Of a stretch of 64,000 nucleotides of DNA, positions 2,431-63,982 are shown piece after piece. Made by a program: the position numbers and the translations under genes. How positions within the stretch are numbered: position 1 is the first letter of the stretch; every line of letters begins with the position of its first letter. The stretch comes from Enterobacteria phage CHB7. The notes beneath the pieces were generated by a model. The model worked only from the letters and a program-made list of their open reading frames with translations, ran no database searches and was not told where the DNA came from. The stretch lies in sequence record MK562504.1; one strand, 5' to 3'.

Positions 2431-2607
2431 TTATTTCTTAAATCTTTTACCAGAACCTTCACAGAAAGGGCAACAGCCACTTCTGGTAAACCCATGACCA
2501 TCACAGTGTTCACAGCGTTCTGTTTCTACAAAGTATCTGACAATGACAAGAACAAATATTGCTATAATCCCCGTCGATAGGAGTAACTCTACCCAATAAC
2601 CTTGCAT
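2431..2607 (-). CDS. small membrane protein with DnaJ-type zinc finger (58 aa, not in ORF track)
   Basis: Hand translation gives MQGYWVELLLSTGIIAIFVLVIVRYFVETERCEHCDGHGFTRSGCCPFCEGSGKRFKK: one hydrophobic helix then two CxxCxGxG motifs. Overlaps the next ORF by 19 nt. Confidence 0.3.
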   Translation of the reverse strand: MQGYWVELLLSTGIIAIFVLVIVRYFVETERCEHCDGHGFTRSGCCPFCEGSGKRFKK

Positions 2608-2924
2608 AACTTCTCTCCAACATGTTTGTACAGTATGAAACTACGGTCATGAACAATACTTGAGGCAACTGCAAAGTTCTCTTCCAGTATTGCTTTGTTC
2701 GGATTATAGAATCCGTCTAAGAATTGGTCAAGTGCTAATTGGTGATTTTGTGGAAGACCTTTAACATAAATCTTCATAGAAAGCGTGGCAACCACTTCAC
2801 CTTGAAGTTCATCTCGTGCTGCTACCAAGATTTGGTTAATGAACTTGTGACCATCTTCAGGACGTTTAATGTCATCCCAATTCTCTTCCAAGACCATATT
2901 GATATTCATCTGTTTGATTTTCAT
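2589..2924 (-). CDS. hypothetical protein (111 aa)
   Basis: Intact ORF co-oriented with neighbours and tightly packed. Confidence 0.4.
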   Translation of the reverse strand: MKIKQMNINMVLEENWDDIKRPEDGHKFINQILVAARDELQGEVVATLSMKIYVKGLPQNHQLALDQFLDGFYNPNKAILEENFAVASSIVHDRSFILYKHVGEKLCKVIG

Positions 2925-3136
2925 AGAACCTCCACAATAAATTTTTTAAACTTTTTACGCAGCTTTCTGATTTGCTTTTTTGTAGGTTTTACACAAAATT
3001 GATAACTCTCAATAATAGCTTGTCTATCATCAGGCATGTCGGATTCTGTGAACCAAAGCACCCAATAAGATTCTTGATACCCTCCGAAACAACTTTGACT
3101 ACCAGCAGTGAAGTATAAATCTGTGTTGAACTCCAT
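2921..3136 (-). CDS. hypothetical protein (71 aa)
   Basis: ORF with 4-nt overlap to the downstream gene; sits just after a terminator hairpin. Confidence 0.35.
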   Translation of the reverse strand: MEFNTDLYFTAGSQSCFGGYQESYWVLWFTESDMPDDRQAIIESYQFCVKPTKKQIRKLRKKFKKFIVEVL

Positions 3137-3150
3137 AGTCTTCTCCAGAA

Positions 3151-3176
3151 ATTAAAAAGGCTCCCGTAGGAGCCTC
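3151..3176 (-). terminator. intrinsic terminator
   Basis: Hairpin AGGCTCC-CGTA-GGAGCCT followed by a T-run on the minus strand, directly downstream of the NadV-like gene. Confidence 0.5.
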
Positions 3177-3189
3177 TTATAATAATTAT

Positions 3190-5016
3190 TTAAAGCTGTC
3201 TGTCAATAACATTTCGTACATCACGAAGGTTAACGTAGCCATATGGCTGAGAGTCGCAGAATACCAGCTTCAGAGCACACTGAGGGTTATCCAGTACACT
3301 TTCAAACTCTGCAAAACCAAAGCCATCTACAGCTTCCAGCTTATCACCATCCCACATAGGGACTACACCACCAAAAGCCGACTTCTTAAGACCACTGTCA
3401 GTTTTAGGGTCTTTTGCCAGCATGATTTCTTCACCATCCATCTGTGCAAGAGTTGCTTTAACAGCAAATGCAAAGGTATCACGAGTCATGTACTGGTAAG
3501 TATATGAACCAACACCAAAGACAACGTTAGAACTTGCAAAGCCCTTTTCAGCAAGACGGCTAAGAATCTCTTCAGCACGTTCCAAAGTGATAGAATCACC
3601 GTAGATTAAACCAATGTGTTCATCAAGAACTTTGTAGCCTTTAGAGTTTACAGCGCCACCAAAGATGTTGTACAGAGTCTTGATAGCACCATCAATTTCT
3701 GCTGTCAGCATTGGTTTAACAACAACTTGACCAGTCTTGTAAGTATCTTTCAGGTTAACTGTGTCAGCAACGTTAAAGTCTTCTGCATCAACAACCAACT
3801 CATAACCTTCAGAGATTAGCCAAGCAGAGAAGCCATAGCCCATATCTGACATGTTACAATTAAGGATTGCATCAAGCAGATAAGTATTGTTAGGAGAAAT
3901 GGTTGACATGTGTTTGTAATACATACTCTTAGCATTTTCCCATTCAATTGCACGATAGCCAGTAACAATGTGTACAGGGTCACCGGAATCTGGACGGATT
4001 ACCAGTTTACCATCACGTTTCAGGATTACTTCACGGAGTTCTGGAAGAATCTCTGTAACTGTACGCCAGAAGTTGTAAGTATCGGACACAACACTTGTAA
4101 TACCAGTTGGGTAAACATCTACCAGCAGGTGTTCAAATGTTTTAACCTCACCACGCCAGCGTTTAGCATCCAGCAAACTATCAGACTGCATGATGTACTG
4201 TGAGTGGATATCATCTTCTGTCAGGTCTTTCATATTCCATGAAATGTTTGCACACATAACGGAATGTTCAGTTGCTGGAACAGAGTTACCAATATCACTT
4301 ACAGTCATAAACTGACCATATGCACGTTTAGCAGTATACACAGCAGGGAAGCTATCAGTTCCTTTAAAGCTGGTCAAGTGGCCTACAGTATTGAAAGCAT
4401 CATCGGTAAAGCCAGACATACCACGCATTGCAAAGTCATGACACTGCCAAGGAAGATGGAAGTCATTGTCACAGGTCTTGTCAGCCCAAGATTTACAGAT
4501 ACGTTTGTAGTGCAGTGCAATAGTTGCAATGGTACAAGCTTTCCAGATTTCAGCAGAGAAAGCATCTTCCAGATAACCAGCTACCCAATGGAAACCTTCA
4601 ACGGTATTTTTGAAGATAATCATTGGAACACGCATAGGAACAACTGTACCTTCTTCAACAGAGTACACTGCAACTGGCAGATAGCCTAAGTCGTGAAGTT
4701 CTTCCCAATGATGACGCTTGATAGCATCTGCACCAAGAACACCATTCATGATTTCTAAGATTTCATCAACAGCTTCTTTCTTATCACGTTCGAAGAAAGT
4801 TGCGTTCCAATGGTCTACTAAGTAATCTTTAACGAAACGTTGGATACCAAAAGCCACTACACCGTCAATTGCTAAAGGGCTGTTAAACCATTTATCACTA
4901 CGTGGTGTCAGGTTGAACATCAAGTATTCTGTTGCACTAGGATACTGGTAAACATGACCAGATTTGTAAGCATCTGCATTTAAACCTGCTGGTACTGCAT
5001 AAAGTGATTTAGTCAT
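3190..5016 (-). CDS. nadV: nicotinamide phosphoribosyltransferase family protein (NadV/Namat-like), 608 aa with C-terminal extension
   Basis: N-terminus (NADAYKSGHVYQYP) and overall layout match the NAMPT family; it is about 110 aa longer than a typical NadV. Confidence 0.8.
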   Translation of the reverse strand: MTKSLYAVPAGLNADAYKSGHVYQYPSATEYLMFNLTPRSDKWFNSPLAIDGVVAFGIQRFVKDYLVDHWNATFFERDKKEAVDEILEIMNGVLGADAIKRHHWEELHDLGYLPVAVYSVEEGTVVPMRVPMIIFKNTVEGFHWVAGYLEDAFSAEIWKACTIATIALHYKRICKSWADKTCDNDFHLPWQCHDFAMRGMSGFTDDAFNTVGHLTSFKGTDSFPAVYTAKRAYGQFMTVSDIGNSVPATEHSVMCANISWNMKDLTEDDIHSQYIMQSDSLLDAKRWRGEVKTFEHLLVDVYPTGITSVVSDTYNFWRTVTEILPELREVILKRDGKLVIRPDSGDPVHIVTGYRAIEWENAKSMYYKHMSTISPNNTYLLDAILNCNMSDMGYGFSAWLISEGYELVVDAEDFNVADTVNLKDTYKTGQVVVKPMLTAEIDGAIKTLYNIFGGAVNSKGYKVLDEHIGLIYGDSITLERAEEILSRLAEKGFASSNVVFGVGSYTYQYMTRDTFAFAVKATLAQMDGEEIMLAKDPKTDSGLKKSAFGGVVPMWDGDKLEAVDGFGFAEFESVLDNPQCALKLVFCDSQPYGYVNLRDVRNVIDRQL

Positions 5017-5020
5017 CTTT

Positions 5021-5042
5021 TAATCTCTCTCAAAATGGGGCT
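5021..5042 (-). terminator. intrinsic terminator
   Basis: Hairpin GGGGCTT-TT-AAGCCCC with T-rich tail on the minus strand, downstream of the Prs-like gene. Confidence 0.45.
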
Positions 5043-5061
5043 TTTAAGCCCCTATAAAGTT

Positions 5062-5943
5062 TCAATCAAGGTTTGCTACAGTAACTTGACCATAATGTGT
5101 TAAGCCACGGTCTTTAGCTTCCCCTAAAGAGTTTGTAGTGTAGATGTGGTCAATGCCATTGTCAAGAAGGTTTTCAACACCTTTAGAGAAGATACCATGT
5201 GTTACATAAAGCTCAACACGTTTTGCACCTGCTTCACGTAGGTGTTTAGCTGCCTCTACGAAGGTTCGACCACCATCACAGATATCATCAAGAATCATGA
5301 CGGTTTTATCGGTCAAATCAACATCGTCAAGGATTCGCATACCAGTGATTTCTCCAGTCTTAAGATTTCGCACCTTAGACATTGTGATATATGGTTTATC
5401 CACCTCTTTAGCAGTCTCTGCAATCTTCTTAGAAGCACCTGCATCTGGGGCTACTAAGTAATCAATTAGAGGGTCATTTGCATAGTGGACTGCAATCTCC
5501 TTTTGAGGAATACTCTGGAAGCAGTTAAACAGGTTATCTGGTACATAGCTGTGAGGGTCAACTGCACAGACTGCGCCAAACCCCATTGCATTAATCTGTT
5601 TAGCAAAAACCTTTAAAGCTGCTGCGTCACCTTTAAACATGTGACGGTCATATCGTGCATTTGGTAAGTAGTAAAATATGACAGTCTTTAAAGCATAATC
5701 ATGAGGAACTAAATCGTCAATTGCTTCTTTAGCCAGTGCCACAGCAAACAGTGTGTCTTTGTCATAACCCTTTACAATCATAACCACATTGTTAATAGAT
5801 GATGCTGCATAAGCAGTAAAATCAACAAGCTCTTGTGAAAAGTGGCCACCAATCTCACCAGAAGGGAATTGGATGATGTTAAACTCTTCTTCATGAGTTC
5901 CTTTAGTCGGTGAATGAATTGTGACACGGATAGATGTTTTCAT
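5062..5943 (-). CDS. ribose-phosphate pyrophosphokinase family protein (Prs/Adps-like)
   Basis: Phosphoribosyltransferase PRPP-binding motif (VMILDDICDGGRTF) and Prs-like architecture. Start is probably the internal ATG at 5943 (MKTSIRV); the track ORF runs to 5958. Confidence 0.75.
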   Translation of the reverse strand: MKTSIRVTIHSPTKGTHEEEFNIIQFPSGEIGGHFSQELVDFTAYAASSINNVVMIVKGYDKDTLFAVALAKEAIDDLVPHDYALKTVIFYYLPNARYDRHMFKGDAAALKVFAKQINAMGFGAVCAVDPHSYVPDNLFNCFQSIPQKEIAVHYANDPLIDYLVAPDAGASKKIAETAKEVDKPYITMSKVRNLKTGEITGMRILDDVDLTDKTVMILDDICDGGRTFVEAAKHLREAGAKRVELYVTHGIFSKGVENLLDNGIDHIYTTNSLGEAKDRGLTHYGQVTVANLD

Positions 5944-5954
5944 AGTTTTCTCTC

Positions 5955-6233
5955 TCAATCAAAAGTTACGTTTGTTACTGCCATTGCAGATTTGCATTTT
6001 ACAGGGTCTACAACGTGGTAAAGTACACTACAGTTACCTGTGCTGTCTGGTACAGGCTTTACCCATTGCTGCTTTATAGTTGGCTCTCCTAAGTCTTTGT
6101 AAGAACCATCTGTAAAGTTGTTTACCATCTCAAGTGCAATTGGTTCTGGAACATGACCACGTATCATGTACATCTCACAACCATTACCTCCTTCACTGAC
6201 TAATGGTAAAATCTCCCACTTTTCTTTAGCCAT
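5955..6233 (-). CDS. hypothetical protein (about 92 aa)
   Basis: ORF whose ATG (MAKEKW) overlaps the upstream stop by 8 nt, suggesting translational coupling. Confidence 0.4.
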   Translation of the reverse strand: MAKEKWEILPLVSEGGNGCEMYMIRGHVPEPIALEMVNNFTDGSYKDLGEPTIKQQWVKPVPDSTGNCSVLYHVVDPVKCKSAMAVTNVTFD

Positions 6234-6741
6234 TATAAGTTGCCTCATAAACAGTCTTGAACTTCGACAAGAGAGATATTGCCAGAACTGCATATTCCCT
6301 GTCAAGCATTGGTGGCATATTATTTCTTAGATACTCTTTTTGTTCTTCATAAGTCATCTTTGGGGTATCTAAAACCCTCTCACCTTGCTTCTGATTATCA
6401 ATCTTAGTCTGGATAAACCAGTTTGCACAGTGATGCTCACCACCTTTTGTGACTGGCTTGTGATGACCTAGTGTAAAGGCTTGCTTTCCAGAATAACGAC
6501 AAAGCTTGTTAAGGATTGCAATAGTGTTCTTGACAACACAGTACTCATAGAGGTTGTCAATTGTATAGTGAGGGTAGTATGCAAAGAGGGAACTGTCACG
6601 GAACTTCCCACGGTTCCAGAGAACCATGTGATTAGAGTTGGAAGTGTCATACTGATGGGAATCAATGAACTCTTGACGTTCATCAAAGTCAAGTCTTAGA
6701 ACAGACATTGCAGCAGCACGTTTTAAGTTAGATAAGTACAT
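6226..6741 (-). CDS. hypothetical protein with His-rich motif (171 aa)
   Basis: Intact ORF with GHHKPVTKGGEHHC motif; co-directional with and immediately upstream of the NAD module. Confidence 0.45.
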   Translation of the reverse strand: MYLSNLKRAAAMSVLRLDFDERQEFIDSHQYDTSNSNHMVLWNRGKFRDSSLFAYYPHYTIDNLYEYCVVKNTIAILNKLCRYSGKQAFTLGHHKPVTKGGEHHCANWFIQTKIDNQKQGERVLDTPKMTYEEQKEYLRNNMPPMLDREYAVLAISLLSKFKTVYEATYNG

Positions 6742-23451: not shown

Positions 23452-24255
23452 TTAGTGAATCTGCGTAGAATCAATTTTTTCTTTATCAGACAGAGCCTGA
23501 ATAGTTTCTACAAACTCATCACCGAAGTGGATAGCAATCTTGTCTTGAAGAACTGCTGCACCAGTTTGCATAATTACTTCACGCAGTGCTTCACCACTCA
23601 CGTTACCAGCAATCTGCTCTACAAACTCAATAGGTGCATCAATCAAACCTGCAACTTCGAACAGAGCGTGAATGCTCATCACCGTGATGATTGAAGGAAC
23701 CAGAGCAGTCAGTTTAACCTGAATCTCATCAAGGCCACGTTCAGCTTCATTATCAACAACCTCTTGAAGTTGCTCTTTAGTCAGCTTCACCATTTCCTGT
23801 GAGCGTTCAAAGATATCTGCAAAACCCCAATCCAGTTTTTCATAGCGTGGGAGTTTTTCTGTAACACGCTTCTCAAGTACAGCCATCACGCTTGCGATGG
23901 AGTTGATAATCAGGTTGAATGTATCCTCTTCATTGAAATCAAGCAGTGCTTCTTTCTCTTCTTCAGAGAGAACTTTGTAGTCACCAGTTTGCATCTTGTC
24001 AAAGACATAACCAACAAAGGCATCTACACCAACAGCTACTGAAGCCAGAGCCAGTTGACGGTTATTCAGAAGCAGTTCAACCTGTGAGCGAAATGCTGAC
24101 TCATCAGAAATCTCTGCATTAACCTGATAAGATTCAGGAGTTACTTGTGAACTGAATGTATTGCTACGCATAACTATAGCAAGGCTTTCAACAGTGTTCA
24201 GCATAAAGTTGCTATCAATACCTTTAGAGGCCAGCATTTCATTTACAGTAGTCAT
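23452..24255 (-). CDS. hypothetical protein (267 aa)
   Basis: First gene downstream of the divergent promoter region. Confidence 0.45.
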   Translation of the reverse strand: MTTVNEMLASKGIDSNFMLNTVESLAIVMRSNTFSSQVTPESYQVNAEISDESAFRSQVELLLNNRQLALASVAVGVDAFVGYVFDKMQTGDYKVLSEEEKEALLDFNEEDTFNLIINSIASVMAVLEKRVTEKLPRYEKLDWGFADIFERSQEMVKLTKEQLQEVVDNEAERGLDEIQVKLTALVPSIITVMSIHALFEVAGLIDAPIEFVEQIAGNVSGEALREVIMQTGAAVLQDKIAIHFGDEFVETIQALSDKEKIDSTQIH

Positions 24256-24256
24256 A

Positions 24257-24679
24257 TTAATTCTCTCTCATTTTGTTAAGTGTTTGTCGTGATAACTTTA
24301 AGCTTTCTGTAGATGAAAAGTCAAGAACTTTTTCAGACCTTGGGAAGTAATGCCTATCCCATGAACTCTCTACATCGCTAATCAGTGTTGCTAGGTTATC
24401 TAAGTCTGTTCCGTTTTGCAACTTCTTTTTTAAAGAATCTATCAAGAAGAGTGTATCTTTTGCTTTACGCCTCTCAGCCGATATCTCCTTCATATGCTCA
24501 AATACTGAACATTTCATTCTCTCATCGTAACCCTCGGAGAGTTCAATCTCATGTTGAACATCAACCATTCGACGATGATGGTAAGCGTATTCCTTTTGAG
24601 CAGCAATGTCAAGTCCTTCCAACTTTTTTAAAGCTCTCATGAAGTCAGCTATGTCTGGGTGAACAAACATTCTCTGCAT
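24257..24679 (-). CDS. hypothetical protein (140 aa)
   Basis: Intact ORF starting at the edge of the divergent intergenic region. Confidence 0.45.
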   Translation of the reverse strand: MQRMFVHPDIADFMRALKKLEGLDIAAQKEYAYHHRRMVDVQHEIELSEGYDERMKCSVFEHMKEISAERRKAKDTLFLIDSLKKKLQNGTDLDNLATLISDVESSWDRHYFPRSEKVLDFSSTESLKLSRQTLNKMREN

Positions 24680-24937
24680 AATGCCCTCTTTTAAGTATCT
24701 ATTAAACTTAATCTGTTTTCTTTACGTATTCTATACGTATAACTTTAAAGCTTCTTAAAAGCTATTAAAAATCTTTTAAGGGGTTTTAAAGAAACTGTAT
24801 AGTTAATCTGTAAAGGGAGTCTTTTAAGTTAAAACCCACTTCGCAAAGATTAACACCTTGTCAAGTGAATTGTCAACTTGCTTTTTGAAACTTTTTGCAG
24901 TAATGTATTGAGTCAATGATTTTGAGAGGGAGTAAAA
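24680..24937. promoter_or_regulatory. divergent promoter/operator region
   Basis: 258-bp AT-rich gap between divergently oriented genes; duplicated TTGTCAA elements, inverted CTTAAAAG/CTTTTAAG motifs, duplicated ACGTAT, and GAGGGAG ribosome-binding site before the polymerase ATG. Confidence 0.5.
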
Positions 24938-27637
24938 ATGGAAAACGTAGATTTTGAAAACTTGCACTTGGTAGGTGATACCGAAACTGATGGGTTACTC
25001 CTTGAGTTCACAAAAGCACACGTAATGGCATTTGCAGATTACAAAGATGACAGTGACGAACCTGCTGTGTGGGTCTTCACCGATGAACCTATTCTTGGTC
25101 ACAAGTGTACCAAATACATCAAAGGTGGTCTTCGTGAAGGTGTAGAGTTTGCTCTTAAGGCAAAGCGTCTCTGCATTCATAACGGTCTGGGTTATGACTG
25201 GTGGGTGTTCAATCACATTGCGCCGGACTTATGGAACTTTGACAATCCGAAGTGCAAACCTTGGGGAGACTTCTTTCAGGATTCTCTTATCCAGTCTCGT
25301 GTTCAGTGGATGGATAGACCTACACCGAAAGGTTACAAAGGTGCTCATGGTTTGGCTGCATGGGGTGCTCGTGTTGGTGTTCGTAAACCAGAGATTGAAG
25401 AGTGGGGCGTTTGGAATGCTGACATTCTGAACCGTGTTGTTGAGGATATTCGAATCAACGCCAAAACTAAACGTGCTCTTGATAACGAATACCTGAAGTT
25501 GAAGAAGTGTGGTGTAGACACTTACGAAACATACATGCGAGCTAAAGAAACATCTTTTTGGATGAGTCAGCAAGCTATCAACGGTTGGAAAGCTGATATT
25601 GAACTTATGCAGTTCCATGTCAAAGAACTTGACAGAATGACTGATGAATTAGCTGCTGAAGTTGAGCCTCATCTACCACCGACTATTAAGACGAAAGGCA
25701 AAGTCACTGGCGAAGAGTTTGCAAAAGCTTGGAACGAGTATGTGGAGACATTTGGTGAAGCAGATGGTTTGAAGCGTATCACTAAGTATCCAAAAACCAA
25801 GTTCCGTCAGCAGGTTCGTAATGGTGAGATGCAGACTTACGCTATCAAACCTTTTGGTAAACCGACTACCAAGATTTTCAACATTGAGAAGCGTAACTGC
25901 TACACTCCAACTAACACGGTTACGGGAGAAGAGTACAAAGAAGGTTTTGTGGCAATGAAAGATGCTCGTGCAGTTTGTAACGAGTTGAATGCTGTGATTG
26001 ATAAGAAGTGTAAAGACTGGAAACCAGTTAAAACTGTGAAGACTGTGAAGTACTACAACAATCACGTAGTAAATCACTTTGAACTTGAGTCAAGCCGTTA
26101 CACAGGTTTGATTGATGCGCCTTATACACCAATTGAGTTTGAAGTTTCACGCATGACTCAGGTTGCGGTTGTGAAGGATTATCTGAAAACTCTTGGCTGG
26201 ATTCCTGATGACTGGAACTACAAGAAAGATTCTGATGGTCGTCCGGTGAAGGTTTGTCGCTTCAAAGACAACAAGAAGATGATTCGTAAACATCCGAAAT
26301 GGCAAGAGATGGTAGACCGTTGTGGGTTGAACTATGTTGAACATGAAGGTGTACAGTACATCGAACACAACTGGTCTGTGAAGAAGTACACAGATTTGCT
26401 TGAGCCTTGCTTGATTCGTACTTCACCGAAACTGACTGAATCATCTTACGATACGATTGAAGGGGAACTTGGACAGAAGATTGCGAAGTACTATACTTTG
26501 ATGCACCGACGCAGAACTATCGAAAACTCAAAGGATGACGAAAAGGGTTGGTTAAACCAGATTCGTCCAGATGGTCGTTTGAGTGCTGGTGCAATGGTGT
26601 TTGGTACTTCAACTGGACGTATGACACAATATGGAATTGTGAACGTACCTTCTGGAGCTGCTGTTTACGGTGAACCGATGAGGGCAGTCTGGATTTGTGA
26701 AGAAGGAACAAACGTAGTTTCCGTTGATATGAACTCTGCACAGCTTGTTCTACTGTGTAACTTTATGGGTGATAAGGAGTTCACCAAAGCGGTAACTCAG
26801 GGTAAAGAAGAGATTGAGTTTATCCGTCAGGAAGACGGTAGATACTACTGTAAACACTTTGACGAATACCTGAATCCAGAAGTTGATAAGTATCTGCGTT
26901 ACGACTCTGAAAATGACTTGTACGTAGTCTACTCAGGTACTGATGCTCATACACTGAACAGTATCTACTTCAGCTTGAACGAAGAACAAGATATCTTGAC
27001 TTGTCGTATGACTCAGGATGAAAATCTTCTTCACGAAATCAGTAAGGGTCGTAAGAAAGCTAAGAATGGTATCTATGCGTTACTGTTCGGTGCTGGTGAT
27101 GAGAAGTTTGCTAAGACGATTAAAGCTGCGACTACTCAGGAAGGTGCATTAACTAAACAGACTTACTTTGTGCGTTTGCCGAAGATTAAGAAACTGTTAG
27201 ATGACTTGGAAGCTGACTTTAAAGCAACTAAGAAAGCACTCGAAGAAGTATTTGGTAAGACTGCTGCAATTGCTAAAGGTGGTTTTGTCAAGGTTGCTGG
27301 AGCATGGTTGTGGTGTAAGTCTCCACACAAACTGTTGAACTACTTGCTGATGGGTTCAGAGGCACAAGTTCAGAATGAAGCAATCAACCTTGCATGTCGT
27401 CGTATGATTGATGAAGGTTTGATGAAGTTGAACGGTCGTAAGCCAGCTATCGGTGCTCGTTTACTCTGTGCATATCACGATGAAACAAGTTGGGAATGTC
27501 CAGAGAGCATGACAGCAGAAGTTAAGGCTGTGACTGACTGGTACTACGGTCAAGCTTCTAAGAACTTAGGGCTTCGTAAAGAAACTCTGGTAACAGGGAC
27601 TGGTAAAGTTGGTAAGTCTTGGTATGAGGTGCATTGA
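24938..27637 (+). CDS. DNA polymerase, family A
   Basis: 899 aa; N-terminal exonuclease motif (DTETDG), motif B-like RKKAKNGIYALLFG and motif C-like YHDE. Confidence 0.85.
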   Translation: MENVDFENLHLVGDTETDGLLLEFTKAHVMAFADYKDDSDEPAVWVFTDEPILGHKCTKYIKGGLREGVEFALKAKRLCIHNGLGYDWWVFNHIAPDLWNFDNPKCKPWGDFFQDSLIQSRVQWMDRPTPKGYKGAHGLAAWGARVGVRKPEIEEWGVWNADILNRVVEDIRINAKTKRALDNEYLKLKKCGVDTYETYMRAKETSFWMSQQAINGWKADIELMQFHVKELDRMTDELAAEVEPHLPPTIKTKGKVTGEEFAKAWNEYVETFGEADGLKRITKYPKTKFRQQVRNGEMQTYAIKPFGKPTTKIFNIEKRNCYTPTNTVTGEEYKEGFVAMKDARAVCNELNAVIDKKCKDWKPVKTVKTVKYYNNHVVNHFELESSRYTGLIDAPYTPIEFEVSRMTQVAVVKDYLKTLGWIPDDWNYKKDSDGRPVKVCRFKDNKKMIRKHPKWQEMVDRCGLNYVEHEGVQYIEHNWSVKKYTDLLEPCLIRTSPKLTESSYDTIEGELGQKIAKYYTLMHRRRTIENSKDDEKGWLNQIRPDGRLSAGAMVFGTSTGRMTQYGIVNVPSGAAVYGEPMRAVWICEEGTNVVSVDMNSAQLVLLCNFMGDKEFTKAVTQGKEEIEFIRQEDGRYYCKHFDEYLNPEVDKYLRYDSENDLYVVYSGTDAHTLNSIYFSLNEEQDILTCRMTQDENLLHEISKGRKKAKNGIYALLFGAGDEKFAKTIKAATTQEGALTKQTYFVRLPKIKKLLDDLEADFKATKKALEEVFGKTAAIAKGGFVKVAGAWLWCKSPHKLLNYLLMGSEAQVQNEAINLACRRMIDEGLMKLNGRKPAIGARLLCAYHDETSWECPESMTAEVKAVTDWYYGQASKNLGLRKETLVTGTGKVGKSWYEVH

Positions 27638-28149
27638 TGCAAGATTGTGGTTTTACTCATGAGCAATTAAAATCATGGATTCACTACGACCCCTTAACAG
27701 GGGTCTTAACTTGGATTGGTAGACCTCCTAACAGTGGTCGGGTGGTTATAGGCAGTCAAGCTGGGTCAATCAAAAGGACAAAATCTGGTGTGTATCTTCA
27801 TACACAGATACTAGGTTACAGGACAGGGAATCACCGTATTGCTTGGTTCTGGATGACTGGAAAATGGCCTGATAAACATATTGACCATAAGGATGGAGAT
27901 GGTCTAAACAATGCTTGGGAGAATCTTAGAGAAGCCACGAAAGAGCAGAACATGGCTAACAGGAGACAACCTAGAACATCAAAGAGTTTAAAAGGCACAA
28001 GTAGAAGCAAATCTGGAAAGTGGATTGCACAGATTAACCATAATGGAAAGACTAACCATATTGGCACATACATGACCGAGCAAGAAGCCCACGAAGCTTA
28101 CTGTGAAGCTGCTATAAAACTCCACGGAGATTTTGCAAAACTTAGTTGA
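27634..28149 (+). CDS. HNH homing endonuclease with AP2-type domain
   Basis: YDPLTGVLTW signature, HNH core (IDHKDGDGLNNAWENLR), AP2-like segment; overlaps the polymerase stop by 4 nt. Confidence 0.7.
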   Translation: MMQDCGFTHEQLKSWIHYDPLTGVLTWIGRPPNSGRVVIGSQAGSIKRTKSGVYLHTQILGYRTGNHRIAWFWMTGKWPDKHIDHKDGDGLNNAWENLREATKEQNMANRRQPRTSKSLKGTSRSKSGKWIAQINHNGKTNHIGTYMTEQEAHEAYCEAAIKLHGDFAKLS

Positions 28150-31210: not shown

Positions 31211-31414
31211 ATGAAGAAGAATCGTTGCAGGAAGAACTATGGAGAAGTGCTTGACGACGAAGGTCATGTCATCTTCCGAGTTTACTGTGCAGATGACTCT
31301 GAAGTAGATAAAGCACTTGATGACTATATTAATGGTACTCGTGAAAACGTCAGAGCAACAAACATAGATTCATTGATTGACACTTCCAGAAAACGGAGGA
31401 AGAAAGATGAATGA
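31211..31414 (+). CDS. hypothetical protein (67 aa)
   Basis: Small ORF whose stop overlaps the next start. Confidence 0.35.
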   Translation: MKKNRCRKNYGEVLDDEGHVIFRVYCADDSEVDKALDDYINGTRENVRATNIDSLIDTSRKRRKKDE

Positions 31415-31706
31415 AGTCTTTGACCCTTACGCCCCACAAGATAAGTGGGAAGCTGATAGAGAGTATGAGATGGAAAGTTATATCTGTCCGATGGATGTAG
31501 ACGAAATGAGAGAGTTCGTTGCATTCCGTTTTGAAAAAGAAATTGAGAAAAGAAAACTTTCTCAGGCACAAGTTGCAAAAATTTGTGATATCTCTCAAAG
31601 TCGTGTTTCCAACATTGTCAACGGTACTGGAAAGATTACCCTTGAATACATGTTGAAAGCTTGTGAAAAACTTGGTGTTAACTTCAACTTAAGGCTGTCG
31701 GATTAA
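31407..31706 (+). CDS. HTH (XRE-like) DNA-binding protein
   Basis: C-terminal helix-turn-helix signature (LSQAQVAKICDISQSRVSNIVNG); start set at ATG 31407 with a GGAGGAAG ribosome-binding site. Confidence 0.45.
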   Translation: MNEVFDPYAPQDKWEADREYEMESYICPMDVDEMREFVAFRFEKEIEKRKLSQAQVAKICDISQSRVSNIVNGTGKITLEYMLKACEKLGVNFNLRLSD

Positions 31707-61472: not shown

Positions 61473-61547
61473 TGGAGCATCCAGAGGGAATCGAACCCTC
61501 AACCTCAGTTTGGAAGACTGTAATTTTCCCGTTTAAACTATGGATGC
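61473..61547 (-). tRNA. tRNA-Gly (UCC)
   Basis: Anticodon loop CTTCCAA, T-loop TTCGATT, CCA. Confidence 0.6.
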
Positions 61548-61553
61548 ACTAAT

Positions 61554-61629
61554 TGGTGGAGAAGCAGGGAATTGAACCCTGTACTTAAGTTTGCAAAACT
61601 TATGTTTTAACCATGTAAACTACATCCCC
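61554..61629 (-). tRNA. tRNA-Ala (UGC)
   Basis: Anticodon loop TTTGCAA; G3-U70 wobble in the acceptor stem; T-loop TTCAATT; CCA. Confidence 0.65.
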
Positions 61630-61635
61630 AATGTT

Positions 61636-61711
61636 TGGTACAGGTGGAGGGAATTGAACCCATCGTCTTACTGATTAAGAGTCAGCCGCATAACCATTTT
61701 GCTACACCTGC
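61636..61711 (-). tRNA. tRNA-Lys (CUU)
   Basis: Anticodon loop CTCTTAA, T-loop TTCAATT, CCA. Confidence 0.6.
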
Positions 61712-61718
61712 ATTAATT

Positions 61719-61796
61719 TGGTAGGAGACAAGGGATTCGAACCCTCAAACACCAACTTCTAAGGATGGTAGGTTTACCAATTACCGTCAATCTCCC
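61719..61796 (-). tRNA. tRNA with anticodon UAG (Leu by anticodon), short variable region
   Basis: Anticodon loop CTTAGAA in an arm nearly identical to the Val(UAC) tRNA; T-loop TTCGAAT; CCA. Confidence 0.5.
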
Positions 61797-62024
61797 ATTA
61801 AATCTTTGTAGAGAACTGCTAAGACGCCAAAGCAACAATGGTATCAAATGCCTTAACAATTCTCTAAAAAGACCTAACTGGTCTTTGCATAGTCTTGTTT
61901 AATCCGGTGACTAGAACCTTTGGAGAGCTTGATATTATCTCTTCTCCGTGACACCTACTAGGTGCTTTGTTGTGCGTGTACGACAATACACGAGGGAAAC
62001 CGAACGCTGTACCAGAGCGTGGGC

Positions 62025-62366
62025 TTAAATCTTTAAGCTAAGTTCAGTCTTGGACTTGACATCTTTAGCTTTGTAGATGACGACTTTATCAAGTGGTTCA
62101 ATGTAAACAGCTAAGTAATCAACTTGAGAGTTATCAAAATTCATTATTCTATTTTCATTCTTGTTAGAACGAACTCTTTTCAGTTGCACTCTCCAAAGTT
62201 CACCTCTTTTGACTGATGTTGATTTTACCTCAACAGTCTCAATCAAACCATCTTTGTGAACTAGAAAGTCATACTTTGCATTATCTGTAGCTGGTGAATA
62301 CACTTCATAACCTCTTTTGAGGAAAGCTAATTGTGTAGCAATTTCACCTACTGAACCTTTCTTCAT
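62025..62366 (-). CDS. PD-(D/E)xK-type nuclease-like protein (113 aa) inside the tRNA array
   Basis: GSVGEIATQLAFLKRGYEV...DFLV...IETVEVKS has the spacing of a restriction-endonuclease-like core. Start set at ATG 62366 with an AAGGTGGTGA ribosome-binding site; the track extension runs into tRNAs. Confidence 0.45.
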   Translation of the reverse strand: MKKGSVGEIATQLAFLKRGYEVYSPATDNAKYDFLVHKDGLIETVEVKSTSVKRGELWRVQLKRVRSNKNENRIMNFDNSQVDYLAVYIEPLDKVVIYKAKDVKSKTELSLKI

Positions 62367-62388
62367 AATCACCACCTTAAAATTATTT

Positions 62389-62475
62389 TGGCAGAGAGTG
62401 CAGGAGTTGAACCCGTACCGTTTCCAGCAGCACCAGTTTTCAAGGCTGGTTGGTCTCCGTTGACCGCCACTCTCT
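62389..62475 (-). tRNA. tRNA-Ser (UGA), long variable arm
   Basis: Anticodon loop CTTGAAA, extended variable arm, T-loop TTCAACT, CCA. Confidence 0.55.
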
Positions 62476-62488
62476 CCGAAACAATCTT

Positions 62489-62571
62489 TGGCATGGGACG
62501 GAGGAATCGAACCCCTTTGAGTAAGTTTTGGAGGCTTACGCACATGCCTTAGTGTCTTAACATCGTCCCAT
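62489..62571 (-). tRNA. tRNA-Trp (CCA), atypical 83-nt form
   Basis: Anticodon stem GTAAG/CTTAC with loop CTCCAAA; T-loop TTCGATT; CCA; acceptor ATGGGAC/GTCCCAT. About 7 extra nt between acceptor and D-stem. Confidence 0.45.
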
Positions 62572-62713
62572 ATATTATTTCGAAGCTTACCGTATTATCA
62601 CAACACTGTAAAGCCCCTTCTCAGATTATTTACATGTTCTGGAAAACATGAGATACAGACCACCTCCCTACAGGAAGACCCGCTTAGGTCGTCTAAGTAA
62701 TCTGCTAACTATT

Positions 62714-62790
62714 TGGTAGCCAAGGTAGGAGTCGAACCTACTTACTCTCGAAGGTAGCTAACCTTCAGTAACTTTCCGACTTTCGTACAT
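62714..62790 (-). ncRNA. tRNA-like element / possible degenerate tRNA
   Basis: Perfect T-arm (GTAGG-TTCGACT-CCTAC) and 3' ...CTTGGCTACCA, plus a perfect GAAGG-TTAGCTA-CCTTC stem-loop, but I could not pair a 5' acceptor strand at a tRNA-compatible distance. Confidence 0.3.
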
Positions 62791-62840
62791 CTGTTAACAT
62801 GTATTCAGATGGCTTACTAGTGTTGTCTTGACCATTAAAC

Positions 62841-62917
62841 TGGCACACCCTACAGGACTCGAACCTGTAACTCAGTGCTTAGAAGGCACTTGCTCTATCC
62901 AATTGAACTAAGGGTGC
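62841..62917 (-). tRNA. tRNA-Arg (UCU)
   Basis: Perfect anticodon stem AGTGC/GCACT, loop CTTCTAA; T-loop TTCGAGT; CCA. Confidence 0.65.
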
Positions 62918-63167
62918 ATTCTTATCTTTAAAGGCTCTCTTAGAAAACCCTTAAAGATGCCCACATTATTAATCATACCGTGGGCGAGTACGCCAAATTC
63001 TTTGATGAGGGGTTGGAAGACCTCACTGGTGTTTAGCCTATTAAGCTACTGCCAGAAAAACATTATCGTTTGCATTTATTTTAGTTTGCAAAAATAGACG
63101 CTACGCTAACGAAAACTAAGGTTACTATAAAGTGGTCACATCTGAATGTCAACAACTTTATCGAATT

Positions 63168-63243
63168 TGGTAGTGGTAGCAGGAATCGAACCTGCGATGT
63201 TCGGTTATCAGCCGAGTGTTATGACCGTCTTAACTATACCACC
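63168..63243 (-). tRNA. tRNA-Ile (GAU)
   Basis: Anticodon loop CTGATAA, T-loop TTCGATT, CCA. Confidence 0.65.
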
Positions 63244-63245
63244 AT

Positions 63246-63322
63246 TGGAGGTTCAGATGGGATTCGAACCCACATTCATAGGGCTTATGAAACCCTTGCA
63301 TTACCTTATCTGCGACTGAACC
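63246..63322 (-). tRNA. tRNA-Met (CAU)
   Basis: Perfect acceptor GGTTCAG/CTGAACC, anticodon loop TTCATAA, T-loop TTCGAAT, CCA. Initiator, elongator or Ile2 identity not resolved. Confidence 0.65.
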
Positions 63323-63331
63323 ATAATAAGT

Positions 63332-63396
63332 TGCCCTTTGGAGAAGAACTATTGAGTGGGTGTTTCCAGCCGCGCAGGTGTTCTTCAGTTAAGGGC
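63332..63396. other. long imperfect inverted repeat
   Basis: GCCCTT...GAAGAAC...(GC-rich loop CCAGCCGCGCAGG)...GTTCTTC...AAGGGC forms a two-tier stem of about 65 nt between two tRNAs. Confidence 0.35.
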
Positions 63397-63401
63397 TAAT
63401 T

Positions 63402-63477
63402 TGGTAGGAGTGGAGGGATTCGAACCCTTCGCCTGTCAGATTAAAAGTCTGCCGCATCACCATTCTGCTACACTCCC
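63402..63477 (-). tRNA. tRNA-Lys (UUU)
   Basis: Anticodon loop CTTTTAA, T-loop TTCGAAT, CCA. Confidence 0.6.
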
Positions 63478-63659
63478 ATTGAATCATCTTTGCAGTAACC
63501 TACGCAAACCTTGCTAAAGGGTTTGTAGAGTCATTTCCTATTAAGCTAATCTAGAATCATGCTAAGGAAATTCATCGGCACTCATGGGACGACATTTAGC
63601 TCCATAAGTCACTGCAAAGAGGATTACCAGACCGTTGTTTATCTTAAGTGCTCCCATTA

Positions 63660-63745
63660 CACCAACACGCCGTAACGTGTGAAGGAATCGAACCTTCGCC
63701 TTTTCTTTACCAGAGAAATAGATTGTTTTATACTTGCTGTAAACG
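63660..63745 (-). ncRNA. tRNA remnant / pseudo-tRNA (putative)
   Basis: Good T-arm (GAAGG-TTCGATT-CCTTC) and a perfect anticodon-like arm (TTTCT-CTGGTAA-AGAAA), but no matching acceptor stem and no CCA. Confidence 0.25.
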
Positions 63746-63904
63746 GTCTTCTGTAAATTTGTTGAGCCAGACCAAGTTTTAAATTTTTCAAAATTAAATT
63801 GGCTTGAAATTTTTTAAGTTGGCTTGCTGAATTTGGTCTTCTGCTCCTTTAAAGAACACTCGTAAGAACTCTTTAAGGGAGGGGCTAAAAAGCCCTCTCA
63901 AATT

Positions 63905-63982
63905 TGGCGGTTACGAAGGGATTCGAACCCTCATCATCTCCCGTGACAGGGGAGTATTTTAACCAGATTAAACTACATAACC
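63905..63982 (-). tRNA. tRNA-Asp (GUC)
   Basis: Perfect anticodon stem CTCCC/GGGAG, loop CTGTCAC; T-loop TTCGAAT; CCA. Confidence 0.65.

Follow-up and report, generated by a model that had tools for sequence, protein, structure and literature searches.

The 258-bp intergenic gap at positions 24680-24937 of the window, by which we mean the whole 64,000-nucleotide stretch of Enterobacteria phage CHB7 (MK562504.1) that was analysed, is 71% A+T and probably represents a bidirectional host RNA polymerase (sigma-70) promoter and leader region of the phage replication module; we put the probability of this reading at roughly 0.62. An earlier note on this DNA had described a divergent control region with early promoters, and that description has stood up well: the gap contains a strong leftward and a weaker rightward predicted sigma-70-type site, and the critical bases of both are conserved in three genera. 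The limits given in the note are exactly the space between the two divergent genes on the map of open reading frames (ORFs), that is, from the start codon of a minus-strand 140-aa ORF (24257-24679) to the ATG (24938) of an 899-aa family-A DNA polymerase. In Escherichia phage mistaenkt, the closest relative with an annotation, the corresponding gap, of 257 bp, is the longest in the 50 kb examined, the next being 156 bp.

Sequence, conservation and paralogy together suggest the following arrangement. The leftward promoter, P_L, would consist of an AAAAAG tract, TTGACA (24876-24871), an 18-bp spacer holding a second TTGACA, and the extended -10 element TGt-TAATCT (24855-24847). Its transcript would start at about 24840 and run through a 161-nt untranslated leader (71% A+T) into the 140-aa gene and on into an operon for deoxynucleoside monophosphate (dNMP) kinase and primase/helicase. 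The rightward promoter, P_R, for which the evidence is weaker, would use TTGCTT (24878-24883), 1 bp from the P_L -35 hexamer on the other strand, followed by a 17-bp spacer and TAATGT; a start at about 24913 would leave a leader of some 25 nt to the DNA polymerase gene. A family of short boxes and a palindrome, described below, would lie within the P_L leader and also upstream of P_R. These elements, we infer, most likely bind a putative phage or host DNA-binding factor that would modulate both promoters. The features concerned are as follows.

24680..24937, no strand: whole divergent control region, from the ORF map and the mistaenkt annotation; conserved in 258 Ounavirinae records
24871..24876, minus strand: predicted P_L -35 hexamer TTGACA, the minus-strand reading of the second TTGTCAA; 6/6 consensus bases, invariant in 8 BLAST-derived relatives
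24859..24864, minus strand: second TTGACA, in the P_L spacer at about -23 to -18; included in the 9-bp palindrome CTTGACAAG
24847..24855, minus strand: predicted P_L extended -10, TGt + TAATCT (TAATCT at 24852-24847), from the promoter scan and conservation
24881..24886, minus strand: AAAAAG tract, UP-element-like, 4 nt upstream of the P_L -35; invariant
24840 (+/-2 nt), minus strand: predicted P_L start, placed from the -10 position, with a 161-nt leader to the ATG at 24679
24878..24906, plus strand: P_R candidate, TTGCTT (24878-24883)-17-TAATGT (24901-24906), predicted start ~24911-24915
24924..24940, plus strand: ribosome-binding site GAGAGGGAG and ATG of the DNA polymerase gene; invariant

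By sequence comparison, the source is a Suspvirus, a Felix-O1-like myovirus of the Ounavirinae, with 96-99% identity to phiSUSP1 and mistaenkt. Over the 3 kb around the gap, identity is 96-97% with the Escherichia phages phiSUSP1, SUSP2 and mistaenkt (all Suspvirus) and about 84% with roughly 250 genomes of Felixounavirus and Mooglevirus. The gap itself matches 258 Ounavirinae records, the nine closest at 95% identity or more and the 249 outside Suspvirus at 82-87%, and over the three genera it is about as conserved as the adjoining coding DNA, its conservation being block-wise. Our alignment of relatives comprised 23 distinct sequences, 8 of them derived from BLAST and the IMG/VR ones picked by their TTGTCAA block.

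The duplicated TTGTCAA elements to which the earlier note had drawn attention are indeed two exact copies (24858-24864 and 24870-24876), although they are not 10 bp apart: their starts are separated by 12 bp, which leaves 5 nt between the copies. The exact pair is unique in the window, in which 10 matches with at most two mismatches occur against 1.9 expected. Read on the minus strand, the pair becomes two perfect TTGACA hexamers and is most simply interpreted as the leftward -35 hexamer plus a second copy within its spacer; the operator role that the note had suggested for the repeats is thus probably not the primary one for this pair. We scanned 640,000 positions in the window with a position weight matrix (PWM) built on the base frequencies of classical sigma-70 promoter compilations. 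P_L (TTGACA-18-TAATCT with TGt) was the best promoter-like site in the gap, with a score of 12.2 and rank 34 of 640,000, and sites scoring at least 12 are enriched 3.2-fold in the intergenic DNA of the full genome. The variants of the -10 element (TGtTAATCT, TGgTAGTCT and TGtTAGTCT, the last two being the Mooglevirus forms) retain the TG, T1, A2 and T6 over the three genera. In phage phiEa21-4, whose gap is otherwise unalignable, a distal leftward TTGACA-17-TACATT is followed by CT-K-W3-AG boxes.

The combination AAAAAG-N3-4-TTGACA is found also at the other strong promoter-like sites of the phage and at promoter A1 of T7. The likeness to A1 extends to the AAAAAG-N4-TTGAC... arrangement, a consensus -35 and a TAnnnT hexamer (AAAAAGagtaTTGACT-17-GATACT in T7 A1 vs AAAAAGcaagTTGACA-18-TAATCT in P_L). 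Unlike strong early promoters of the A1 type, P_L would have a second TTGACA in the spacer, an extended -10 and an unusual TAnnCT hexamer, and its class recurs just two or three times in the genome. As an independent -35 element, the spacer TTGACA was ruled out, there being no -10-like hexamer 16-18 bp downstream of it (AAGTGG). By-eye comparison with the T4 MotA box, the Pho box, sigma-28, sigma-54, sigma-E, CpxR, PmrA, TyrR, Fis and Lrp sites showed misfits in spacing or core bases.

We also scanned IMG/VR for TTGACAANNNACTTGACAAG and found both phage sites in many Ounavirinae contigs of ~87 kb, together with 35 unrelated viral contexts of the tandem motif. TAnnnT lies exactly 17 bp past the first TTGACA in 8 of these 35, with about one expected, which argues for the first TTGACA as the working -35. 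The eight contigs in question, all unrelated to the Ounavirinae, carry the tandem motif as TTGACAAnnnACTTGACAAG followed by TAnnnT at exactly 17 bp, and several of them have a common AAGTAC or AAAGAC linker. Judging from sequence, the tandem motif with TAnnnT at 17 bp may represent a recurrent or transferred promoter design.

Two further promoter-like sites of this general kind lie elsewhere in the window. One, at 24584-24612 on the minus strand, is within the 140-aa gene (TTGACA-17-TACGCT, PWM score 13.0, ACTTGACA upstream) and could either serve the genes downstream as an internal promoter or be a coincidence of the coding sequence. The other is in the nicotinamide phosphoribosyltransferase gene, where the words TGGTCAA, TTGTCAA and TTTTCAA follow each other at 12-bp spacing (5147-5177) and overlap a minus-strand promoter-like TTGACA-17-TACACT with a score of 14.6.

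In P_R, TTG and TA..GT are kept (TAATGT, TAGGGT and TAGTGT being the -10 forms), and the 17-nt spacer is fixed in length and variable in sequence, a pattern expected of a real, weak promoter. The invariance of TTGCTT itself is ambiguous because this hexamer overlaps the conserved A-tract of P_L. In comparison with other back-to-back sigma-70 promoters, the predicted pair differs in having -35 hexamers that adjoin on opposite strands, with 1 bp between them.

Several observations weigh against the bidirectional promoter reading. A stricter consensus scan of 24000-25600, which demands at least 4/6 matches per hexamer, returned no promoter or terminator within the gap; it missed P_L because the -10 element matches the consensus at just 3/6 bases, and the spacer is 18 bp. 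A 161-nt leader would be long for a phage early gene. phiEa21-4 has a gene-proximal promoter in addition to the distal one, and this has no obvious counterpart in the gap. That the second TTGACA and ACCCACTTCG are invariant is not accounted for by a simple promoter, and the invariance of the TTGTCAA block in the 23-sequence alignment is partly by construction through the choice of IMG/VR sequences, a bias of which the 8 BLAST-derived sequences are free. The P_R candidate scores only 6.3 (rank ~1100), with 3/6 matches in each hexamer, and an alternative rightward site, TTTAAG-17-TATAGT (24775-24803), scores 8.3; transcription from the latter would converge on P_L, and the conservation of its -10 may instead reflect one of the boxes (box 5 below). 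We found no transcription start mapping in the literature for any member of the Ounavirinae. The published BPROM table for the relative UAB_Phi87 lists no site with the P_L -10.

The gap is the homologue of the intergenic region between genes 96 and 97 of Felix O1, in which gp96 is the DNA polymerase. Divergent early promoters were assumed there, with no sigma-70-like sequence recognised (Whichard et al. 2010, PMC3185647), and ORF 96 was found by reverse transcription PCR to be transcribed within 5 min (PMC3185647). The timing of transcription and its passage through many terminators were left as open questions (PMC3185647). The Felix O1 gap has the same flanking genes (gp96/gp97), is ~87% identical and contains all the motifs discussed here; unlike the 2010 paper, which recognised no promoter in it and left the repeats undescribed, the present analysis assigns likely positions to promoters, boxes and palindrome from sequence.

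The bidirectional promoter reading gains from the existence of a second copy of the leftward promoter module. In the full mistaenkt genome, which we joined from three pieces for genome-wide comparison, there is only one other divergent gap (78317-78564, outside the window), and the module is present in it too, on the same strand. At both divergent gaps the leftward unit is headed by the 35-bp module TTGACAAnnnACTTGACAAGnTG(n)TAnnCT, and the arrangement TTGACAA-N3-ACTTGACAAG is likewise common to the two. In the second gap the module reads aaaaaagttg-TTGACAAatgACTTGACAAGcTG-TAGCCT and is followed after ~20 nt by an identical 13-mer, ACTTAAAAGACTC, then by the palindrome AGATATC-N6-GATATCT and by CTTAAAAGcCTTTTAAGAAG directly before the ribosome-binding site; CTTAAAAG..CTTTTAAGAAG is found there too. 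Susp- and Felixounaviruses hardly differ in this second module. At mistaenkt 2007 there is a looser third copy, TTGACAAtaccccTTGACAttgaTAGATT, with boxes after it. Of the repeats, which the earlier note had proposed to look for elsewhere in the genome, the tandem-TTGACA module recurs at the second gap and the boxes both there and at the genome termini. The second gap also contains a good rightward promoter-like sequence, TTGACT-17-TACCAT. Promoter-like repeats of another kind occur in the left arm of mistaenkt (~2579-6430, outside the window), where ~85-bp cassettes are repeated between small genes; these comprise TTTACA, a GGGG...CCCC stem across the spacer, a -10 of TAAGAT or TACCAT and a conserved CCTAAACTGGAGATTC ribosome-binding region, and they resemble the promoter-stem-loop cassettes of T4-type phages.

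The inverted motifs of the earlier note are real: CTTTTAAG (24688, 24773 and 24821) and CTTAAAAG (24754) are both present in the gap and turn out to be members of a wider family of CT-W4-AG boxes. CTTAAAAG is the reverse complement of TCTTTTAAG; the latter occurs five times in the window against 1.4 expected, three of the five being in the gap and two in the other 63.7 kb. In all, the gap holds seven 8-mers of the form CT-(T/G)WWW-AG, of which boxes 2-4 form an imperfect palindrome. No strand is assigned to any of these elements.

24688..24695: box 1, CTTTTAAG; overlaps the ribosome-binding region of the leftward gene
24743..24750: box 2, CTTTAAAG; invariant
24754..24761: box 3, CTTAAAAG; in Suspvirus and one other sequence, with the frame kept in 3/23
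24773..24780: box 4, CTTTTAAG; invariant, an apparent gap column being an artefact of the extra G of the window
24795..24802: box 5, CTGTATAG; invariant, and holds TATAGT, the alternative rightward -10
24808..24815: box 6, CTGTAAAG; CTGTTAAG or CTATAAAG in relatives
24821..24828: box 7, CTTTTAAG; on the minus strand within ACTTAAAAGACTC, the 13-mer common to the other divergent gap
24743..24791: imperfect 49-bp palindrome with 24-nt arms, 79% complementary, formed by boxes 2-4

Five strict and seven relaxed boxes compare with means of 0.38 and 0.49, respectively, in dinucleotide shuffles of the gap, and none of 5000 shuffles reached the observed count. Once two apparent losses in the 23-sequence alignment are recognised as alignment-gap artefacts, six of the seven boxes keep CT....AG in all 23 sequences while the inner bases vary (CTTTTAAG, CTATTAAG, CTGTTAAG and CTACTAAG); in box 1, for instance, the frame is kept in 23/23 sequences with inner bases TTTT, ATTA, GTTA or ACTA. 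phiEa21-4, with a polymerase just 63% identical and a gap that cannot be aligned, nevertheless has boxes after its distal TTGACA-17-TACATT, namely CTTAACAG, CTTTAAAG, CTTTACAG and CTTTAAAG. The extra G mentioned above is a 1-bp insertion between boxes 4 and 5, the window having GGGG at 24780-24783 where mistaenkt and all other relatives have GGG.

Genome-wide, 50 of the 86 CTWWWWAG sequences are in the intergenic 8.6% of the genome, where about four would be expected from composition. Composition-matched frames number 0-10 in intergenic DNA (AGWWWWCT 10, GAWWWWTC 2, TCWWWWGA 1). CTWWWWAG clusters occur in the terminal non-coding region, in the gap at 24680-24937 (the densest internal cluster), in the other divergent gap and in the gap at 1845-2039. 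Pairs of boxes are frequent, 11-13 bp centre to centre and in either orientation, and because of this and of the presence of boxes in terminal non-coding DNA, we favour recognition as DNA rather than as RNA. The terminal non-coding DNA, ~1.7 kb in all (mistaenkt 1-470 and 85400-86664), is dense in short repeats: CTTTATAG, CTTTTAAG, CTATATAG, eight copies of CTTAACAG, many of (T/C/G)TAACAAG and three of TTACGTAACTTTATAG, the last of which resembles ATACGTATAACTTTAAAG of the gap.

Two known kinds of box array invite comparison. T7 has terminal CCTAAAG arrays (T7 17-345 and 414-432), for which we know of no established function, and these, too, are repeated C-T-(A/T)n-A-G words beside a genome end and upstream of early promoters; the mistaenkt terminal region has an array analogous to that at the T7 left end. 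Unlike the T7 repeat, a 7-mer in one orientation, the boxes here have an 8-bp palindromic frame, and the copies in the gap are internal, in what would be a promoter leader. In MetJ met-boxes and omega-repressor heptads, small repressors bind cooperatively to short palindromic boxes set in arrays, and the phage boxes resemble these in being 8-bp units with a palindromic frame, the centres of adjacent boxes in a pair lying 11-13 bp apart in either orientation. This resemblance is a formal one only, as no ribbon-helix-helix or similar protein has been identified and the first gene product of the leftward operon is modelled as all-helical, with no match to a DNA-binding fold.

The ACGTAT(A/T) elements of the earlier note are real as well, although they form the two arms of a perfect palindrome, a better description than tandem elements.

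24723..24739, no strand: perfect 17-bp palindrome TACGTAT-TCT-ATACGTA (7-3-7); unique in the window, 0.04 expected

Relatives have it in three variants, TACGTAT/ATACGTA, (T)AACGTAT/ATACGTT(A) and TATGTAT/ATACATA. These amount to two compensatory double substitutions with no broken pairs in 13 sequences (U-A/A-U 8:5; C-G/U-A 10:3). By a rough count, two substitutions would by chance both hit one pair and be complementary about once in 39 per event, and since there are two independent double changes, the symmetry of the palindrome is selected, whether as an RNA or DNA hairpin or as a two-fold protein site. The conservation patterns thus indicate that the boxes and the palindrome alike are under selection.

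Could the repeats nonetheless be chance features of an A+T-rich spacer whose only function is to separate two genes? Short A/T-rich words recur easily, and the consensus promoter scan was empty in the gap. Against this stand the 5000 shuffles, none of which reached the box count, a gap as conserved as the adjoining coding DNA over three genera, a palindrome with compensatory changes and a module that is present at a second locus too. Conservation and shuffle tests already contradict the chance reading, which we consider barely credible.

Compensatory changes raise the question of whether the leader acts as RNA. The hairpin at 24723-24739 together with CUUAAAAG/CUUUUAAG could act within the leftward mRNA, whether in its processing or stability, in translational control, or in nut/put-like antitermination past the terminators of the 36-kb leftward unit. 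The hairpin was the only structure upheld in a consensus fold of the leader, being retained by RNAalifold with its 7 bp; a palindrome and ACUUAAAAGACUC are present in both paralogous modules at a similar distance from the predicted start; and passage through numerous terminators is an acknowledged open question (PMC3185647). Intergenic CTTAAAAG is in the sense orientation in 13 of 16 cases, although this bias may merely mirror the A-richness of the coding strand. On the other hand, the 172-nt leader as a whole folds no better than shuffled sequences (z = -1.1), and beyond the 7-bp hairpin with its two covarying pairs there is one both-sides change, in a pair broken in 2/13 sequences. The pairing of a 9-bp inverted repeat, GGGTTTTAA/TTAAAACCC, is not maintained in relatives, and this candidate was discarded. 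Rfam searches in gathering and E-value modes found no family in the gap (a chance mir-155 match reached 20 bits vs a threshold of 56), all Rfam matches in the window being tRNAs outside the gap. The boxes, palindromic in frame, in both orientations and clustered at terminal non-coding DNA, also point to DNA rather than RNA. An RNA-level function of the leader strikes us as quite doubtful.

The earlier note had named a phage protein, the helix-turn-helix (HTH) protein at 31407-31706, as a regulator possibly acting on the gap. This ORF is a genuine HTH_3 protein of the Cro/CI/HigA type (Pfam HTH_3 E = 6.5e-12; closest PDB structure HigA2), and it could bind as a dimer to the 17-bp palindrome and/or to the TTGACAA repeats, tuning or shutting off early transcription. 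The gene is in the rightward unit, the 7-3-7 palindrome is laid out like a classical operator for an HTH dimer (a palindromic site of 14-18 bp), and the protein is found in exactly the 258 records that keep the gap, while phiEa21-4 has no detected HTH homologue, no palindrome and no tandem TTGACA. Such a common phyletic distribution is, however, confounded by shared descent. There is essentially no variation in the recognition helix, ISQ(S/A)RVSNI, across clades whose palindromes differ symmetrically, and we found no co-variation between the two, the S/A difference not tracking the three palindrome variants. Operators of the Cro/CI type touch or overlap a promoter core and usually come in several copies. 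The palindrome is unique in the genome, with none at the other divergent gap or in the terminal region, and lies off both promoter cores, at ~+101 to +117 relative to the P_L start, and 175 bp upstream of P_R. The TTGACAA elements repeat in direct orientation, with just the 9-bp palindrome CTTGACAAG around the second one, and the boxes are present in phiEa21-4, where no homologue of the HTH protein was found. Since the palindrome is single-copy and far from the cores, and the boxes persist in phiEa21-4, a link between the HTH protein and the gap is possible but has no specific support, and we regard an operator region for this protein as unlikely.

The first leftward gene product was also considered as an autoregulator and rejected. 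The 140-aa protein has no Pfam family, its PHROG is of unknown function, and its 11 homologues are all from related phages. As a DNA binder it fared no better: AlphaFold predicts a helical hairpin (mean predicted local distance difference test score, pLDDT, 74) with no significant PDB match.

A long conserved untranslated stretch past a strong promoter would be accounted for if the gap were also a replication origin. In an origin of the promoter plus downstream unwinding element type, to which T4 oriF/oriG and the T7 primary origin belong, the P_L transcript would form a persistent RNA-DNA hybrid in the A+T-rich leader and prime the leading strand for the T7-like polymerase and primase-helicase, whose genes flank the gap. 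Such a function is compatible with the promoter reading, to which it would add a second role. Outside the terminal non-coding region, no 100-150-bp stretch of the genome has a less stable duplex than the leader (~24686-24835; z = 3.9), and at a 100-bp window the second divergent gap comes fifth in duplex instability. The gap at 24680-24937 is located between the polymerase and the primase/helicase operons. The Felix O1 replisome is T7-like (PMC3185647), and we found no origin described in the literature for the Ounavirinae.

The known origins resemble the gap, as interpreted here, in that a promoter leads into the DNA that melts most readily in the genome, within a block of replication genes; T4 oriF(uvsY) and oriG use MotA-dependent middle promoters, and the T7 primary origin uses the phage's own RNA polymerase. 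Neither is homologous to the gap, so that the parallel would be one of analogy. A+T-rich gaps are unstable in general. Cumulative GC skew turns at the gap but does so at the other divergent gap as well, following the direction of transcription; GC/AT skew is uninformative on the origin because it is confounded with that direction. DnaA boxes (at most one mismatch) and the consensus for integration host factor (IHF) are both lacking within the gap. An origin of the DnaA/iteron type was rejected, there being no DnaA box in the gap and no initiator recognised among the neighbouring genes. A transcription-primed origin deserves to be kept in mind, yet we hold it only tentatively and think it improbable on balance.

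A more far-reaching proposal would join several of these elements. The tandem-TTGACA promoter, the CT-W4-AG boxes and the palindrome might constitute a phage-specific regulatory and replication module at both divergent gaps, in which the boxes are sites for an Ounavirinae DNA-binding factor and the leaders serve as R-loop-type origins. This we consider decidedly speculative and rather improbable; if true, early transcription, origin firing and the terminal repeat arrays would all be tied to one motif family.

According to the mistaenkt annotation, the leftward unit continues after the 140-aa gene with dNMP kinase, primase/helicase, exonuclease and ribonucleotide reductases, and the rightward unit comprises polymerase, ligase, the HTH protein, dihydrofolate reductase and thymidylate synthase. 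A few neighbouring genes deserve mention. A 267-aa protein amid the replication block (23452-24255, minus strand) is labelled 'minor tail protein' in PHROGs and RefSeq; it gave no Pfam or PDB sequence match and no informative match, and the label looks doubtful because of the position of the gene in the replication block. In the window, an HNH/AP2 homing endonuclease gene (27634-28149) lies directly next to the polymerase gene, at its 3' end, while in phiEa21-4 an HNH gene sits instead between the control region and the polymerase. Finally, 20 tRNA genes are clustered at 58939-63982 on the minus strand, co-directional with the structural genes; the second tandem-TTGACA promoter lies upstream of them.

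Divergent control regions are elements of an ordinary kind, and the existence of one at this place is already implicit in the Felix O1 literature. What is new is a leftward promoter with a predicted position, a candidate rightward one, and the recognition of the repeats as motif families common to a second control region and the genome ends; in the literature on Ounavirinae we found no description of these motifs. No general principle is changed by these results. Felix O1 and its relatives are, however, widely used as typing, biocontrol and therapy phages, and for this group the analysis provides concrete coordinates for a probable leftward promoter and its start, for a rightward candidate and for conserved cis elements.

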